In this document: positions 4,233 through 13,264 of the stretch, piece after piece
How positions within the stretch are numbered: position 1 is the stretch's first letter
Layout: each line of letters starts with the position of its first letter
Assembly (NCBI GenBank): GCA_043750125.1
Contig: JAYVCD010000418.1
Coordinates: 1-13,264, forward strand
Length of the DNA stretch: 13,264 nucleotides
Source: Archangiaceae bacterium
Lineage (GTDB): Bacteria > Myxococcota > Myxococcia > Myxococcales > Myxococcaceae
Direction: 5' to 3'
Translations under genes and position numbers: made by a program
Notes under the pieces: model-generated
Databases searched by the model: none
Told to the model about the DNA's origin: nothing
Seen by the model: the letters and a program-made list of their open reading frames with translations, nothing else

Positions 4233-4919
4233 ATGGACGACGACCCTCAAGACCGGGAATTCCCACGAGGCGCCGCAGAACCGCGGGTCGGGCTTCCCGT
4301 GCGGTTGAGAACGGTCGCTCGACCCGAGCAGGGCGAACGCGCCGAAGCGTCGACCGTACATTGCCCGGTCATTCAGGGGTCGCGCTCCGTAGAGCACTGC
4401 ATGCGGTGCCCCCGATTTAAAGGCCTGGGGCGCGACGAACGGGGAGTTCTTGTTCACTGCCGGCCCGGTTCCGGCATTATCCCCACCACGGACCTCGCAG
4501 ATGCGGTCAACACCACACCGACCGGTGAGCTGCTCGGCGCCGAGGTGATGTGCCTGGACTGTGAGCTCGCGGCATCCAAGGCGGCGGAACTCCTCCAGGC
4601 TCGCGGCGTCCGGTCCGCGCCTGTGGTCGACGATCATGGAGTGCTGATCGGCGTCGTCGAGGTCAGCGCGCTCCGCCGTGCATGCGAGGACGCAGAGACG
4701 TTGCGCGGCTACGCGTTGGGCGCGACGGCTCCAGAAGTCGAGGACGCAATGACCTACACGGGGGCTGCGCTCAGCGAGTCTGCGTCAATCGCCCAGGCGG
4801 CGCGCTTGATGGCCACCCGGGGCGTCGAGAGCGTCACTGTGGTCAGTCAGGACCAACAGGTGCTGGGGGTGCTCACTGCGATGGACCTGGTTCGCTGGTT
4901 GGCAACGCTTGGCGGCTGA
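4233..4919 (+). CDS. CBS-pair protein with N-terminal Cys-rich (C-x11-C-x2-C-x16-C) domain, 228 aa
   Basis: ATG at 4233 preceded by AAAGGA. CBS repeats LQARGVRSAPVVDDHGVLIGVV and MATRGVESVTVVSQDQQVLGVLTAMDL; N-terminal HCPVIQGSRSVEHCMRCP...VHC. Confidence 0.9.
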   Translation: MDDDPQDREFPRGAAEPRVGLPVRLRTVARPEQGERAEASTVHCPVIQGSRSVEHCMRCPRFKGLGRDERGVLVHCRPGSGIIPTTDLADAVNTTPTGELLGAEVMCLDCELAASKAAELLQARGVRSAPVVDDHGVLIGVVEVSALRRACEDAETLRGYALGATAPEVEDAMTYTGAALSESASIAQAARLMATRGVESVTVVSQDQQVLGVLTAMDLVRWLATLGG

Positions 4920-5013
4920 GGCGAGGCGTCACGACAAGCACTCTTTGGCAAAGGCGGCATCGAACAGCAGGGAAGCGCGCCCACGGGGTTTCCAACGGGC
5001 CGCGGCGCTTGAA

Positions 5014-5028
5014 ATGCACCGATTGCGC
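5014..5028. promoter_or_regulatory. Candidate activator site ATGCA-N5-TGCGC upstream of the USP gene
   Basis: Same TGCA-N5-TGCR pattern as 4085-4101, about 50 bp upstream of the -24 box. A weaker copy GTGCG-N5-TGCGT is at 5042-5056. Confidence 0.4.
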
Positions 5029-5078
5029 CGGCGTTGAAGACGTGCGGCTTCTGCGTCGACGGCCCGCTGAGGCACGTG

Positions 5079-5094
5079 CGGCCCGCCGATTGCT
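5079..5094 (+). promoter_or_regulatory. Putative sigma54 promoter of the USP gene
   Basis: CGGCCC-GCCGA-TTGCT (GG-N10-GC). Predicted +1 near 5105, ATG at 5108, no SD. Confidence 0.65.
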
Positions 5095-5107
5095 GTACCG
5101 ACAGTGC

Positions 5108-6391
5108 ATGTCGATGCTCTGCGCTACCAATTTTTCCCCTGAGGCGATCACCGCCACCACCTTTGCTGCAGAGCTTTCCCGTCAACGCCGAGAGAATCTC
5201 TGGCTCGCCTTTGTGATGCCGGAAAACGCCGCGAAAGCCTTTGGCGAAGCGGTCTTCAAGACTGCGGATGAGACGCTGAAGAACGAGGCTGCGCGGGCTC
5301 GCAAGCTGGGCGCCAACGTCACGCCCGCGCTTCTGATCGGCAAGCTTCACACCGAGCTTCCGCGGTTCGCTGCCGAGAACAAAGTTGGGCTGGTTATTAC
5401 CGGCGACACCCGCAAAGAGCCCAACTTCATCGGCACCGGGACGCTCGCGCGTCTGGCGCAACACCTCGAGGCTCCGCTGTGGGTCGTGCGCGACCCGGCC
5501 CCGCTCCTTGCCTGGGCGAAAGGCGAGCGGCCACTGAAGGTGATGCTGGCGATGGATCGAACCCAGAGCACCCAGGTAGCTGTCGAGTGGCTGTCGAAGC
5601 TCTGCCGCTATGGAAGGATCGACGTCGTTGGCGCGCATGTCTATTGGCCGGCAGTCGAAGCGCAGCGGATGGGGCTGCCACCGCTCCGGACCTGGGACGA
5701 GCAGCGACCTGAGATTCTCGAGGCGTTGCACCGCGAGCTGCTGGGGATGCTGCCTCCCACCCTGAGCCAACGGGTACGAATCGCGCCGGCGCTCGGGCGG
5801 GCGTCGGAGCACGTGAACGCGCTGGCCGCCGAAGAGGGCGTTGACCTGCTGGTGCTCGGCACTCACCGCCGCCAGGCGCTGGGACAGCTTTGGAGCGTCT
5901 CCGAGCAGTGCCTCCAGTTGGCGTCGATGTCGGTCGTTTCGATTCCGGCCGGCGCCGGGACCCAGGACCCGAAGCCTGCGTTGCATCGGGTCGAGCGGAT
6001 TCTTGCGGCCAGCGACTTTTCCCCGACGGCGGACCGCGCGATCACCTGGGCGCTGTCGATTCTCGCCAGAGGCGGCACCGCAGACCTGGTGAATGTCGTT
6101 CCTTGCGCTGTCGGCGCGGTCGCAGAGCGGCAGCTGATCGATCGGCTGCTCGAACGGCTGCCGCCGGAAGCGCGCGCCAACAAGCTCAACGCCGTGGGGC
6201 ACGTATTGGTCGGCCCGAATGCTGCCCAGGCCATCTCGGCAGCGGCTGAGCGCTTCAACAGTCAGGTGATCTGCCTCGGCTCGCGCGGGCACTCAGGCCT
6301 GGTCAAGCTGATGCTCGGTTCGACGGCGCAAGGCGTCCTCGAGGCTGTCTCGAGCCGGCCAGTAATGGTCGTCCGGCCAGTCGAAGCCTGA
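5108..6391 (+). CDS. Universal stress protein with three tandem USP domains, 427 aa
   Basis: Domain starts MLCATNFS, VMLAMDRT and ILAASDFS; motifs DLLVLGT and VICLGSRGHSGLVKLMLGSTAQGVL...PVMVVR. Start set at ATG 5108, where USP similarity begins. Confidence 0.93.
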   Translation: MSMLCATNFSPEAITATTFAAELSRQRRENLWLAFVMPENAAKAFGEAVFKTADETLKNEAARARKLGANVTPALLIGKLHTELPRFAAENKVGLVITGDTRKEPNFIGTGTLARLAQHLEAPLWVVRDPAPLLAWAKGERPLKVMLAMDRTQSTQVAVEWLSKLCRYGRIDVVGAHVYWPAVEAQRMGLPPLRTWDEQRPEILEALHRELLGMLPPTLSQRVRIAPALGRASEHVNALAAEEGVDLLVLGTHRRQALGQLWSVSEQCLQLASMSVVSIPAGAGTQDPKPALHRVERILAASDFSPTADRAITWALSILARGGTADLVNVVPCAVGAVAERQLIDRLLERLPPEARANKLNAVGHVLVGPNAAQAISAAAERFNSQVICLGSRGHSGLVKLMLGSTAQGVLEAVSSRPVMVVRPVEA

Positions 6392-6414
6392 GTGTTCCGC
6401 CGTCTTCACCCTGC

Positions 6415-6437
6415 AGATCCCCCCTGGGGATCTTTTT
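6415..6437 (+). terminator. Rho-independent terminator after the USP gene
   Basis: AGATCCCC-cct-GGGGATCT followed by TTTT, 23 nt after the stop codon. Confidence 0.75.
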
Positions 6438-6439
6438 GC

Positions 6440-6710
6440 GGACTCAATGTCTCAGCGCAAATCGGTGCACCAGACTCACACGGCTACGTCAACGGGCTGT
6501 CGGTGGGCGGCAAGTTGTTCGTGCCCGCCGCATCGCAGCTGGGCGCGGGGGTCACGGCGACGGGCGGCGTGCGACTGCGATCCGTCACAGCTTTCGGACC
6601 TCGACCCCGCGACGGGAACTCAGCGCAGGTTGCTCACTCCACTCAAAGGAAGCTGCACCAACATTCACTCGGTGCTGCCCACGGACGATGGGCGCTTTCT
6701 GCTCGCGGTA
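6440..6710 (+). pseudogene. Unassigned coding remnant(s), possibly beta-propeller-like
   Basis: Protein-like peptides in two different frames (GYVNGLSVGGKLFVPAASQLG; LSDLDPATGTQRRLL...IHSVLPTDDGRFLLAV) with no credible start or RBS. Confidence 0.3.
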
Positions 6711-6711
6711 G

Positions 6712-6765
6712 CGCGTCGATGCGCTGATGGATTCCGTCGCCAAGAACATGCGCCGGGACCTGCTG
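6712..6765 (+). repeat. 54-bp perfect direct repeat, copy 1
   Basis: cgcgtcgatgcgctgatggattccgtcgccaagaacatgcgccgggacctgctg is identical to 8736-8789; flanking bases differ on both sides. Confidence 0.97.
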
Positions 6766-6802
6766 CTGCTCCTTGACCCGACGGTGCCGAACTTCCGATG
6801 GG

Positions 6803-8404
6803 TTATTTTTCGTTCACCCAGTTTGAATCGACGCCGATCTTCCCGCCGAACATCGTCATCCAGGACGTGAGCTGCTGAACGTATTGCGCCTCGTTGTTTC
6901 CATCGCTCGAGGGCGCGTACTTATGAACCAGCCCCTTCCAATCGCGCGCGTCGACCAGCGCGCGGTAGGGCAAGGTCGGGCTGCCCATCAAGTGGACATA
7001 GGCCTCGATGCCGGACTGAATCGACCCGAAGTGCTCGAAGCCGCCCTGCCCCGGCGTGCCGCCGAACTGACTTTCCCACTCGGCATGCCGAAGGTTTCCA
7101 GGGTTGTTGTTCGCGATTGAGAGCGTGTTCTCCGACCGGAGAAAGGTCGACTCTTTCGCCAGCTGCGCCATCACCAGGTCCACCGGCACGTGTTCCTTGC
7201 GGCAGGAAGCGACGAGCACCGCCCCCATCCCCTGCATCCGGCTGCCCGGGTAGCCGGCGAGGACTGCATTAATTTTTCGCGCCGTCTCAGCATCGCCCGC
7301 TGCCGGCGGCTTGACGGGCGGCGTCCCGGCGACCGCTCCGAGGGCCTTCTGCAGCGCTGCGCGCGTCAGGGGTCCGAAGTTCATCCCGTCGTTTCCGACG
7401 ATGCCCGCTCCCTGCTGGATTCGGTTCACTGCCGCCCGGGTCAGCGGTCCGTAATACCCCGGGCCGGTGTTCATGTCCGCCTGGCGCATCGCACCCGCTT
7501 TGACCAGCGCGCGCTGCAGCTGCTCTACGTTCGGGTCGTACGAAGCGCCGCCATTGAATTGCAGATCCACGGTCGGCACGTTGGTTACCGGAGGCGGCGT
7601 CGCAGTCGGAGGCTGAGCCGGTGCGCCAATCGCGGTGCCCTTGTCGTTGACGAAGAACTGGGTGCCCGAACGCGGGAAGTGGTCGAAGACGTGGGAGTGG
7701 TTGGTGTTGGTGGCTCCCGCTTGCGCGAGCGCCGGACCCTGACCGCTGTCCGAGCCGGGGCGCACCACGCCGATGTGTCCAATGTCCGGGCTCTCATCGA
7801 TGCTCGCCACCGCTGGAAAGCCGAGGTTTGCCAGCCGCTGCGCTTCTGCCGCCGAGACCGGACGCCAACCCTGCTCCGGACCGTGTTGGTTCAACCACCG
7901 GTTGGTCGAGTTCGCGTCCATCTCATGCCCGCTGTTGTAGGGCTGGGGGTGGCCGGCGTTGTCGACCCAATGGGGAATCTCAGCGCCCATCGCGCGGGTG
8001 ACATCCCACGCGAAGATGTTGCAGTAGGTGTTGCCGTCGCGCTGCGCGTAGCGCGGGTTGCTGGCCACCGCGAATTCGTTGATCACATTGTCGTAGGTGA
8101 CGGCCGTTCGCATCGCCGGGTTGCCGCGAAGCGGAGGCGACGCCGGATACGCGGCGTTGGTGTTGGTGGTGCCTGGCGCCGGTTGGCTCCCGTCGAAAGA
8201 AGCACCGGGTGGGGCATTGGAGGCGGGCGCAGGCGCCGGTGGCCCGAAAGTGTCGCTCTGCCCGGGAATCTGCAGCACCGCGCCAGCCGAGATCAGGTCC
8301 GCATTTTTGATCTGCGGATTGACACCCATCAGCGCTCCGACCGAAGTGCCATACCGCGCGGCTACGGACGAAAGCGTGTCACCCGGACGAATCTGGTAGC
8401 TCAT
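6803..8404 (-). CDS. Multidomain peptidoglycan hydrolase: LysM + Cys/His (CHAP/NlpC-P60-like) domain + PG-binding domain + lysozyme/glucosaminidase-like domain, 533 aa
   Basis: LysM YQIRPGDTLSSVAARYGTSV...NPQIKNADLISAGAVLQIP; TYC128N and GH210IGVV; PG_binding_1-like VEQLQRAL...GYYGPLTRAAVNRIQ; AQLAKE418S...NNPGNL...F..IQSGIEAY...KYAP..DGNN...Y. SD AGGAG upstream. Confidence 0.9.
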   Translation of the reverse strand: MSYQIRPGDTLSSVAARYGTSVGALMGVNPQIKNADLISAGAVLQIPGQSDTFGPPAPAPASNAPPGASFDGSQPAPGTTNTNAAYPASPPLRGNPAMRTAVTYDNVINEFAVASNPRYAQRDGNTYCNIFAWDVTRAMGAEIPHWVDNAGHPQPYNSGHEMDANSTNRWLNQHGPEQGWRPVSAAEAQRLANLGFPAVASIDESPDIGHIGVVRPGSDSGQGPALAQAGATNTNHSHVFDHFPRSGTQFFVNDKGTAIGAPAQPPTATPPPVTNVPTVDLQFNGGASYDPNVEQLQRALVKAGAMRQADMNTGPGYYGPLTRAAVNRIQQGAGIVGNDGMNFGPLTRAALQKALGAVAGTPPVKPPAAGDAETARKINAVLAGYPGSRMQGMGAVLVASCRKEHVPVDLVMAQLAKESTFLRSENTLSIANNNPGNLRHAEWESQFGGTPGQGGFEHFGSIQSGIEAYVHLMGSPTLPYRALVDARDWKGLVHKYAPSSDGNNEAQYVQQLTSWMTMFGGKIGVDSNWVNEK

Positions 8405-8515
8405 GACGACTCCTGCCCCTTTTGCCTTTCAAAGAGGTTGTCGCCCATCGTCGCGCTGGGGTTTCGCCTCGGTCTGTAAAGGCGATTTCGATCGGCAGAG
8501 ATCCGCGATGCCCTT

Positions 8516-8565
8516 CCCGCAGCGCACACCGAAGCGCATTGATGCGCACGCGTGTGCGCTGCGGG
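8516..8565. repeat. Long inverted repeat/hairpin (14-bp perfect stem, internal loop, 5-bp stem, 4-nt loop)
   Basis: cccgcagcgcacac (8516-8529) pairs with gtgtgcgctgcggg (8552-8565); inner gcgca-ttga-tgcgc at 8534-8547. Confidence 0.85.
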
Positions 8566-8735
8566 TGATTCAGCGCCGACTTTGATGCGGGGCGTCTTCA
8601 ACGTCGGGGACAACAAGACCTCCCCTTACATTTTCGAGGCCAACTTTGCCTGAGTGCCAGCGGCGGGTGAAGCGGCCGGACTTCAGCGCGAGGTGCGCAT
8701 CAGGTCTTGAGCCGCCGCACGTCTCGCAACGCGAT

Positions 8736-8789
8736 CGCGTCGATGCGCTGATGGATTCCGTCGCCAAGAACATGCGCCGGGACCTGCTG
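8736..8789 (+). repeat. 54-bp perfect direct repeat, copy 2
   Basis: Identical to 6712-6765. Confidence 0.97.
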
Positions 8790-8938
8790 GTATGGACGGC
8801 CACCCGCGGCCTGCGGGCGTGTTCGGCATCCGCACCGACGACTCTGCGCCGCTTCGGCCATCCTCCGAAGCATGGGTACTCCCGCAAGAACGCTCCTCCC
8901 GCCCCCCGTCTCTCCAGGGCCACCTGCCTGAAACCCCC

Positions 8939-9238
8939 TTGGTTGCGCTTACCGGTATCTTGCGAGGCCTCGCGATCGGGTGCGGGCTGGCAGCGCTGAT
9001 TGCTCCGAAGGCGCTGCGGCTCGCCTACCTCGCGGTCACGGTGATCGGGATCCCGATTGGCTACGTGGTCTCGCACGTGGTGCTCGCAGTGATCTTCTTC
9101 GGCGTCTTGACCCCCACGGGGTTGCTGCTGCGATTTTTCAAGGGTGACCCGATTCATCGCCGCTGGGAACGCGGGCGCGCCAGCTACTTCACTGCCCGGC
9201 TTCCATCTGCGCCGCGCCGGTACTTCCGGACCTATTGA
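8939..9238 (+). pseudogene. SxtJ-family membrane protein, probably 5'-truncated
   Basis: PKALRLAY...IGIPIGYVVSHVVLAVIFFGVLTPTGLLLRFFKGDPIHRRW...SYF...RRYFRTY matches the SxtJ C-terminal pattern. The upstream in-frame part (8792-8938) looks unrelated; no RBS. Confidence 0.7.
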
Positions 9239-9763
9239 ATGCGCGCGCGCGGTGGCTCGGCCTCGCCCCGTGGCTGCTGACACCCGCCTGCGGCCCGGTG
9301 CGCGTTTCGCCCAATGCCCAGTCGATTTACCGGGTCGGGCGTTTTGACGACACGGATCCAGGTGGGCCGTGGTCCGCCTCGCGCTTCTCGCTGAAATTCA
9401 GTGGGGCCTCGGTGCGCGTGCGGTTGCGACAGGCGACGCGGCCCGCGAGCCCCGAAGGGCCCCCCCAGCCTCTTCGGGTCCGCGTCGAGCTCGACGGAAT
9501 CGTTCATGACGTCTCCGCCGACGAGCGCGGCGAGCTGGCTTTCGATGCAAGGGGGCTTCTGGGCCAGGCGCATCGGCTCACCCTGGTGCGTCAGAGCGAA
9601 CCCCGGCCCGGAAAAATTCGTACCCGCGTACCGCGTGTTCGTCGATCGGATTCGCGCGGCGTATCCGAAGGCGATCGTCTGCGCATTGCTGATGCCCACC
9701 GGATCTGTCCCCGAGCGCGAAGCGATGCGGAAGTACCGCTTCCGGGCCTGGCCTCGAACCTGA
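9235..9763 (+). pseudogene. CE2-like SGNH/GDSL esterase lipoprotein with internal deletion and frameshift
   Basis: Signal/lipobox-like LLTPAC; CE2 N-domain-like IYRVGRF...WSASRFSLKFSG...VELDG...HRLTLVRQSE. At ~9600 it jumps to another frame, PEKFVPAYRVFVDRIRAAYPKAIV (late SGNH helix). No GDS, GxND or DxxH motif remains. Confidence 0.7.
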
Positions 9764-9774
9764 TCTCCGGGGGG

Positions 9775-10025
9775 CTACGAGAGCGGCCAGGGACCAAAGA
9801 CTTCGACGTCGACGCCTTCCGCATAGTGGACGACCGCCGGCGGCACGGTGGGCTGGCGAATTCCACAGGCCTGCAGCAGCCCGTCTTCGAGGTGGATCAG
9901 AGAAGCGCGCTGCGCGGGGTAGGGCGAGTGATGAACCTGCCCCAGGCTCAGCGCGCGGCTGTCACTGCCAGCAGCGAGCTGGCGTCGAGCGAGAAGAAGT
10001 ACACCCCGGGTTGCCCGCGGTAGTG
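9775..10025 (-). pseudogene. DUF2071/YqjF-family remnant (5'-truncated, internal deletion)
   Basis: Minus strand HYRGQPGVYFFSLDASSLLAVTAAR, then at ~9950 a frame switch to LSLGQVHHSPYPAQRASLIHLEDGLLQACGIRQPTVPPAVVHYAEGVDVEVFGPWPLS* (TAG 9777-9775). Both blocks resemble YqjF motifs that are normally well separated. Confidence 0.75.
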
Positions 10026-12403: not shown

Positions 12404-12525
12404 TGCGCACCGCTTGATAGAAAATTCGACGTGCCCGCAACACAGTCATTGAGGGTAGGCGCAGCGCGATTTGTCGGCGTTAGACCGTGTTCATTGACCG
12501 TTAGACGCAGCACGTGGTGGGAGAC

Positions 12526-13264
12526 ATGAAACTTAAACTCTGGGTTTTTTCGGTTGCAGTCCTGGTGACGAGCGCTTGTGACTCGTCCTTGAACGCGGGC
12601 AGCAGTTGCAACGCGAAGACGTGCGATGGGTGCTGCACGCTTGAGGGTACCTGCAGCTCTGGCAGGGTCGATACCCAGTGTGGCGCGGCGGGCACGGCTT
12701 GCGTCGACTGTTCCTCCCAGAACGGCGTCTGTTCTTCGAGGACCTGCGCGTCAGCCGTCGGCGCTGGTGGTGGCGGTGGCGGTGGCGGCGTTGGCGGTGG
12801 TAGCGGTGGTGGCGGCAGTGGCGGTGGTGGCGGTGGCGGCAGTGGCGTTGGCGGAGGCGGTGCCTGCATCCCTGAAAGCGATGTTTTGTTCTGCTCTCGT
12901 TTAGCCAAGGACTGCGACAACGTGACCGCCGCAGACAACTGCCTTGCATCGCGCACCGTCAACTGCGGTTCATGCAGCACGCCCCAGACTTGCGGCGGCG
13001 GCGGAGTCGTTGGGGTCTGCAGCGAAGCAACGGGGGCTATGAGCTGGTCACGCTTCGCAGACCCCTCGTTCTGGCGAATTCGATTCTACGGGCCAAAGGT
13101 CGCCGTCGATGGTTTGGGGAACGTCGCCGTTGCTGGCGGGTATCTCAAGGACGTGGATTTTGGCACCGGCATTCTCAGCAGGGTGGGCGGTAGCAATTCC
13201 TTTCTGGCGCGATATTCCGGAAACAACATCGCCCTTTGGAGCTCGGCCTTTAAGACGACTTCGG
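12526..13264 (+). CDS. Cys-rich, Gly-linker lipoprotein with start of an SBBP-like beta-propeller (runs off the right edge)
   Basis: Manual translation: MKLKLWVFSVAVLVTSA-C18; CNAKTCDGCC...QCGAAGTACVDC; poly-Gly; CIPESDVLFC...NCGSCSTPQTCGGGG; VAVDGLGNVAVAGGY...DFGTG...FLARYS...LWS. No stop to the window end; SD GGGAG at 12519-12523. Confidence 0.9.
   Translation, partial: MKLKLWVFSVAVLVTSACDSSLNAGSSCNAKTCDGCCTLEGTCSSGRVDTQCGAAGTACVDCSSQNGVCSSRTCASAVGAGGGGGGGGVGGGSGGGGSGGGGGGGSGVGGGGACIPESDVLFCSRLAKDCDNVTAADNCLASRTVNCGSCSTPQTCGGGGVVGVCSEATGAMSWSRFADPSFWRIRFYGPKVAVDGLGNVAVAGGYLKDVDFGTGILSRVGGSNSFLARYSGNNIALWSSAFKTTS
12766..12861 (+). repeat. GGY-rich low-complexity tract encoding a Gly/Ser linker
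   Basis: 32 codons, mostly GGT/GGC, in frame with the 12526 ORF. Confidence 0.9.

Follow-up and report, generated by a model that had tools for sequence, protein, structure and literature searches.

Overlapping pieces of an AAA+ ATPase gene as a perfect direct repeat around a peptidoglycan hydrolase gene: a probable rearrangement scar in a myxobacterial genome

Gene relics that occur as direct repeats are short, in-frame pieces of a gene whose intact parent is located elsewhere; they are found twice in identical form, in a non-coding context, and bracket a rearranged segment that contains no mobility genes. The same can be said of a sequence of 54 nucleotides (nt), here called R, whose two copies enclose the gene of a peptidoglycan hydrolase in a myxobacterial metagenome-assembled genome (MAG), G000, which comprises 460 contigs and 6.17 Mb and is 89% complete. 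The window analysed is the entire contig C418 (13,264 nt) of this genome, and along it the left flank (A), the first copy of R, the enclosed segment B (6766-8735, 1970 nt), the second copy of R and the right flank (C) follow one another. The parent of R is an AAA+ ATPase gene. The locus differs from gene relics in that the parent gene lies on another contig, C39, next to a paralog of the bracketed gene, in that the fragment postdates the paralog pair, and in that copy 1 of the repeat is joined to a piece of another, unrelated gene. We propose that the two copies of R are probably overlapping relics of one fragment of the AAA+ ATPase gene, that is, the scar of an illegitimate or template-switch recombination around an intact hydrolase gene, and we infer from the arrangement an order of events and a mechanism.

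Other described systems share part of this architecture. Campbell-type insertion products and repeat-bracketed amplifiable units, which undergo RecA-dependent duplication, amplification and deletion (PMC1428787), have the same A-R-B-R-C order with identical direct repeats, and are expected to give either deletion to A-R-C with release of a circle or amplification of R-B. The present locus differs in that the repeats are only 54 nt long and no amplification is visible, the depth of B being close to that of its flanks. Integrase-mobilised islands, delimited by attL and attR, also display direct repeats that are a gene piece and flank an insert, whereas here an integrase is lacking, neither end holds an intact target gene, the cargo consists of one gene that is an old chromosomal paralog, and R is present only three times in the genome. 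Transposons and insertion sequences with a target-site duplication differ from this locus, which has neither terminal inverted repeats nor a transposase. Integron cassettes resemble it in that one gene is accompanied by an imperfect palindrome close by. However, the palindrome of the present locus lies 5' of the gene and is dispersed in the genome, while an attC site is expected 3' of the open reading frame (ORF); the bracketing repeats are direct and identical and are not attC hairpins, and no match to the IntI family was obtained among the ORFs of the window. Lastly, the length of R equals 55 minus 1, as would be the case for a k-1 artefact of a De Bruijn graph, but the repeat-length cut-off of the assembly lies at 99 nt rather than at either 54 or 55 nt.

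The repeat, its parent gene and the enclosed hydrolase

Positions 6712-6765 and 8736-8789 constitute a direct repeat of 54 nt in two copies, 100% identical and with a spacing of 2024. It is the longest exact repeat that a repeat search of the window retrieved, the longest in 30 shuffled sequences measuring 12-18 nt, so that its length is far above the chance expectation. A stop codon, TAG, is found at 6709-6711, immediately 5' of copy 1. The frame of R reads RVDALMDSVAKNMRRDLL, continues beyond copy 1 as LLLDPTVPNFRW and is preceded by ...HVSQRD upstream of copy 2; at the junction of a hypothetical circle it would remain open across 82 codons. An initial annotation of this DNA had described the perfect repeat, the whole LysM hydrolase gene and a strong hairpin between its copies, and these features of the frame, all of which are confirmed here. 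The meaning that it gave to the open frame is not: R reads as protein because it corresponds to codons 31-48 of the AAA+ ATPase gene, the frame is that of the parent gene, and the ORFs that contain the copies of R have no match to any Pfam family.

The search of the genome for further copies that the initial annotation had suggested yielded one more, with two mismatches, at C39:32350-32403. R is thus present only three times in G000. An exact query with the 54-mer, with IUPAC codes at the two variable positions, gave no matches in a collection of metagenome contigs from which the records of the genome itself are possibly excluded. The copy on C39 is formed by codons 31-48, in frame, of an intact ORF of 500 amino acids (aa) (...LVSWEEQ-RVDALMDSVAKNMRRDLL-EWTATRGLRA...), which encodes an AAA domain (PF00004) and carries no insert. 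Its product matches phrog_8638, a family of unknown function, over its full length (E 5e-146).

Comparison with the parent gene extends both copies beyond the 54 nt that they share. Copy 1 (6710..6765, forward strand) comprises 56 nt with 96% identity to C39:32405-32350. Copy 2 (8736..8818, forward strand) comprises 83 nt with 95% identity to C39:32403-32321, that is, R followed by 29 nt of the parent gene, and three of its four differences from C39 are synonymous. By blastn and alignment, the two copies jointly tile a single fragment of 85 nt (F), of which copy 1 represents positions 1-56 and copy 2 positions 3-85, and both edges of the 54-nt identity coincide with the junctions with segment B. 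F, at least 85 nt in length, covers codons about 31-58 of the AAA gene; in a tblastn comparison of the whole AAA protein with the window, residues 28-62 alone gave a match. R thus corresponds in frame to part of a gene whose intact form lies elsewhere, and has neither the start nor the remainder of that gene, which is the definition of a gene relic. At position 30 of the repeat both copies have a C, where C39 and the genomes G001 and G004 have a G; since this derived base is shared, the two copies come from one common source. A second AAA paralog that could have served as source of the fragment was sought in the 89%-complete MAG and none was found.

The enclosed gene (6803..8404, reverse strand) encodes an intact peptidoglycan hydrolase of 533 aa with LysM, PG_binding_1 and glucosaminidase-like domains (Pfam) and matches to endolysin-type PHROG families. 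Inspected by eye, the protein begins straight with the LysM domain and shows no obvious N-terminal signal peptide. Its paralog, C39:27317-28921, has no internal stops and is 77.7% identical in aa and 76% in nt. It lies 3.4 kb from the AAA gene, and the order and orientation of AAA gene and paralog on C39 are the same as those of copy 1 and the hydrolase gene in the window. The two resemblances are of different age. Four-fold degenerate sites differ in 116 of 229 cases between the hydrolase paralogs, compared with 2 of 17 when F is set against the AAA gene (Fisher p = 0.002), so that F came to lie beside an old paralog only recently. The possibility that the C39 paralog had lately converted the hydrolase gene was considered and rejected, as no 60-nt window exceeds 92% identity. 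The central region of the hydrolase (about residues 100-280), which has no Pfam match, is 88-92% identical in nt to the paralog. Adjacency of AAA and hydrolase genes is specific to this lineage, the two being located on different contigs in the four other genera that possess both. On C39 (27200-33500) the neighbourhood consists of a START-domain protein, the AAA+ ATPase, a 240-aa ORF, a WGR-domain protein and, in convergent orientation, the LysM hydrolase paralog. Four of the five other genera searched have the AAA gene, conserved at 63-65%, but with no LysM hydrolase adjacent to it.

Assembly of the repeated region

R is real DNA and not an artefact of assembly with k=55. Enumeration of every maximal exact repeat of at least 30 nt across the whole of G000 showed that repeats become steadily fewer between 30 and 93 nt and then pile up at 94-99 nt, with 201 pairs, in 196 of which both copies are at contig ends, and with no repeat longer than 99 nt. 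The final k was therefore about 99-100, not 55, and single k-mers consequently span R together with both of its flanks. A length of 54 nt is represented by one repeat, R itself, and a length of 55 nt by three. The caveat of the initial annotation, that 54 equals k-1 for an assembly with k=55, accordingly does not hold.

Independent evidence came from the Logan contigs (k=31) of three public runs, X1, X2 and X3; contigs of this k are unable to bridge 54 nt. In X1 and X2, contigs 6349-6739, 6736-7105 and 8539-8765 lead from A into R, from R into B and from B into R, respectively, and in X3 a single contig, 8539-8859, spans B-R-C, so that the four types of junction are all seen in independent contigs. 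The contigs of X1 have a depth of 10 in A, of 7.6-9.4 in B and of 8.9 in C. This comparison of coverage inside and outside the repeat, which the initial annotation had called for, gives similar values, and B is therefore neither amplified nor clearly under-represented.

The order A-R-B-R-C might still not exist on one molecule if a loop in the assembly graph had been threaded or strain variants had been joined. The MAG is fragmented and incomplete, the independent contigs do not bridge R, and the contig of X3 passes through B-R-C unbranched while the A-R-B side is uncovered in that run. We nevertheless regard such an artefact as unlikely, taking into account that: (i) the final k of about 99 is well over 54, so that each pass through R required real k-mers with both flanks; (ii) repeats do not pile up at 54 or 55 nt; (iii) the four junction types are present at 8-10x in X1 and X2, and (iv) B is connected to R on either side, the sole alternative being a free circle or array, which is disfavoured by the equal depth and by the lack of a replicon.

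Origin of the arrangement and its alternatives

We propose that the 85-nt fragment F would already have been at the locus before the hydrolase segment arrived. Illegitimate recombination would then have set the 1970-nt segment inside F, duplicating 54 nt and generating A-R-B-R-C. Two routes can be envisaged: a staggered break may have received the segment and then been filled in, or the template may have been switched in the course of replication or repair. Template switching over long distances is described in PMC1428787. In a close alternative, the same AAA fragment would have been copied onto both sides of the hydrolase segment, with the same final arrangement. The insertion inferred by the initial annotation thus survives in part: the geometry, with F1-56 on one side and F3-85 on the other, fits an insertion with a 54-nt duplication, while the idea of a cassette with a life of its own does not, there being no recombinase, tRNA, terminal inverted repeats or restored att-like target gene, and the guanine-cytosine (GC) content being uniform.

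A second gene fragment abuts copy 1. It consists of 41 codons (6588..6709, 122 nt, forward strand) from the C-terminal part of a beta-propeller protein of roughly 405-420 aa, has neither start nor continuation, and its homology stops at 6709|6710, exactly where copy 1 begins. Its product is 75.6% identical in aa to a sequence of G004:C3 (L014 13239-13361), and its nt identity to genes of G003 and G002 is 74-80%; the gene is intact in these three relatives of the genus. The only other match in G000 is a paralog with 29% identity, with no intact ortholog in the 89%-complete MAG. Because this fragment is fused to copy 1 and two dispersed repeats, described below, are also present, both intergenic regions appear as patchworks of rearrangement debris, and the position of the propeller piece directly against copy 1 suggests one event, or several, in which short patches were copied from a template. 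A repair event that first invaded the paralogous hydrolase locus and then underwent a nearby template switch might explain why the AAA gene was the source.

Several observations weigh against a simple scar. F beside the hydrolase gene mirrors the AAA gene near the hydrolase paralog of C39, a non-random link that the model in its simple form leaves unexplained, and, judging from their sequence divergence, the AAA fragment is much younger than the hydrolase duplication and yet shows the same adjacency. Usual target-site duplications are far shorter than 54 nt. The extra AG by which copy 1 extends beyond R consists of 2 nt, for which the chance expectation is 1 in 16; were it fortuitous, copy 1 could be a partial copy of copy 2. 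Linkage through the 54-mer, and with it the order A-R-B-R-C, is taken from the original assembly, and X3 has no cover at 6200-6580 and 6732-6982 although B and C are covered, so that the A-R-B join is not seen in that run; these gaps may be due to low depth or to filtering. In X5, a run from a second study, A, B and C are represented by pieces at about 2.5x, and no conclusion is based on these or on the gaps of X3.

A more dynamic interpretation would make the locus a module that moves independently of any recombinase, RecA popping the hydrolase gene out as a 2024-bp circle that re-enters at the remaining fragment or at the AAA gene of C39. In its favour, R is repeated without a mismatch and in direct orientation, A-R-B-R-C is the geometry of a Campbell-type insertion product, and a 96%-identical target is available inside the intact AAA gene, near the paralogous hydrolase. 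RecA-dependent instability of direct repeats is, besides, well known (PMC1428787). Against it, no joints or alternative forms were reported in four runs, k=31 contigs being incapable of showing such forms, the depth of B is close to that of A and C in X1 and X2, so that any fraction of empty sites or circles must be small, and functions for replication or transfer would be lacking from the circle. Moreover, 54 nt is a weak recombination substrate. We therefore hold such a module to be improbable; if it existed, the population would be heterogeneous in hydrolase dosage. A more elaborate form, in which the portable AAA piece of 54-85 nt would serve as the homology for RecA excision and for reinsertion at the fragment or at the AAA gene of C39, seems very improbable; it would couple the dosage of a lytic enzyme to on/off switching of the ATPase in a predatory myxobacterium. 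In a weaker variant, the 3' end of the hydrolase mRNA, extending as far as a terminator-like site at 6675-6655, would carry the antisense of copy 1 and pair with the AAA mRNA.

Instead of one event, two independent captures are conceivable, the hydrolase gene having been flanked by two breaks that were each filled with a copy of the same AAA gene region. The adjacent propeller fragment shows that short gene pieces have been captured at this locus, and the copies have different extents, copy 2 being longer at its 3' end and copy 1 perhaps longer at its 5' end. However, two events would have had to take the same 54 nt of a 1.5-kb gene, and with the derived base at position 30 common to both copies, which are otherwise identical, one event is simpler; two captures thus appear improbable. 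The arrangement might also have arisen if B-R was first duplicated in tandem and a deletion came afterwards, at the cost of two or three events.

Features of mobile elements are absent. Among the 17 ORFs of the window, the Pfam scan found no family of integrases, recombinases or transposases, and the window has no tRNA, both in agreement with the initial annotation. Terminal inverted repeats of B are absent, the best alignment of its ends scoring 9, a value matched or beaten by 57 of 200 shuffles. Neither copy of R lies at an intact tRNA or protein gene, the two being isolated fragments of 56 and 83 nt with unrelated flanks. Hence, although identical direct repeats derived from a gene segment recall the att duplications of integrative elements, and although the AAA family corresponds along its full length to a phage protein family, it is highly improbable that B is a site-specific cassette mobilised in trans, with R as its attL/attR core and the AAA gene as its target, since integrase, tRNA and inverted repeats are lacking, the AAA gene of C39 carries no insert and neither copy sits in an intact target, R occurs only three times in G000 and gave no match in the collection of metagenome contigs, and the cargo is a single old chromosomal paralog.

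Our preferred interpretation, therefore, remains that of a rearrangement scar, in which the hydrolase gene is intact and selected and R has no dedicated function. Its likely sole consequence would be that, on rare occasions, RecA-dependent recombination removes the hydrolase gene as a 2024-bp circle unable to replicate, or that the gene is amplified in tandem. In this respect the initial annotation, which considered R as a substrate for loss or amplification of the lytic gene, is supported as to the possibility.

Surroundings of the locus and implications

To the left of the repeat lies a gene (4682..6391, forward strand) for a protein of 569 aa with a universal stress protein (Usp) domain, in which PF00582 is recognised in three stretches (E 3e-40). 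The loci of its homologs in G004 and G001 contain no other gene of the window. To the right, a small membrane protein of the SxtJ family (PF19588, E 2.7e-7, residues 65-121) is encoded at 8792..9238 on the forward strand, its true start being probably later than 8792. The following gene, 9235-10023, had no match in four of four genus genomes, an empty result that shows nothing by itself. As the flanking genes have no syntenic counterparts in the relatives of the genus, the region is variable.

The hairpin noted in the initial annotation belongs to a palindromic element (8508..8574) that resembles repetitive extragenic palindromes and is a dispersed repeat of G000. Its portion 8516-8565 folds with -46 and -50 kcal/mol (z about -5), and at least four further copies, with 84-97% identity, are found at C257:7586-7652 (97%), C424:253-319, C399:23351-23404 and C149:3604-3662. 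Another dispersed repeat, of ~111 nt (8846..8956), closely precedes the point at which the SxtJ-like gene is likely to start. It has copies with 94-97% identity at C251:3523-3633 (97%), C285:2285-2400 (94-96%) and, partially, at C240:7728-7784, is confined to G000 among the 41 genomes searched, and reaches in runs X1 and X2 a summed contig depth ~10-fold over that of its neighbours. It has no Rfam match and its fold is not significant (z = 0.25).

The spacer between copy 1 and the stop codon of the hydrolase gene (6766..6802) has no match in G000 or in the relatives, and blastn-short and tblastx gave no significant match that would indicate the origin of 6392-6587, 6766-6799, 8427-8507 or 8575-8735. 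Rfam models matched nothing in the region of R and the hydrolase gene, the single match elsewhere in the window being below threshold. A promoter scan found none, and terminator-like sites number four, with 2.3 expected.

Towards the end of the contig, the ORF 12514-13263 contains a GGC/GGT-rich tract of 9-nt periodicity (12751-12870), a Gly-rich coding repeat; many other contigs contain tracts resembling it, several of which lie at the ends of their contigs. Elsewhere in G000, non-tandem exact direct repeats of 56-58 nt occur at C166:996-1053/3711-3768 and at C44:5494-5549/9053-9108, with copies 2.7 and 3.6 kb apart, respectively, and may be further examples of the same type of structure.

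As a worked example, this locus illustrates that a gene may be enclosed by a perfect repeat with a readable protein frame without any att site or artefact of assembly being involved. In this myxobacterial lineage, intergenic DNA gathers short and fresh pieces of the organism's own genes, here those of an AAA ATPase and of a beta-propeller protein, and such pieces hint at break repair with templated filler or at template switching. If R mediates loss or amplification of the hydrolase gene, it would be a small, added source of heterogeneity in lytic enzymes.

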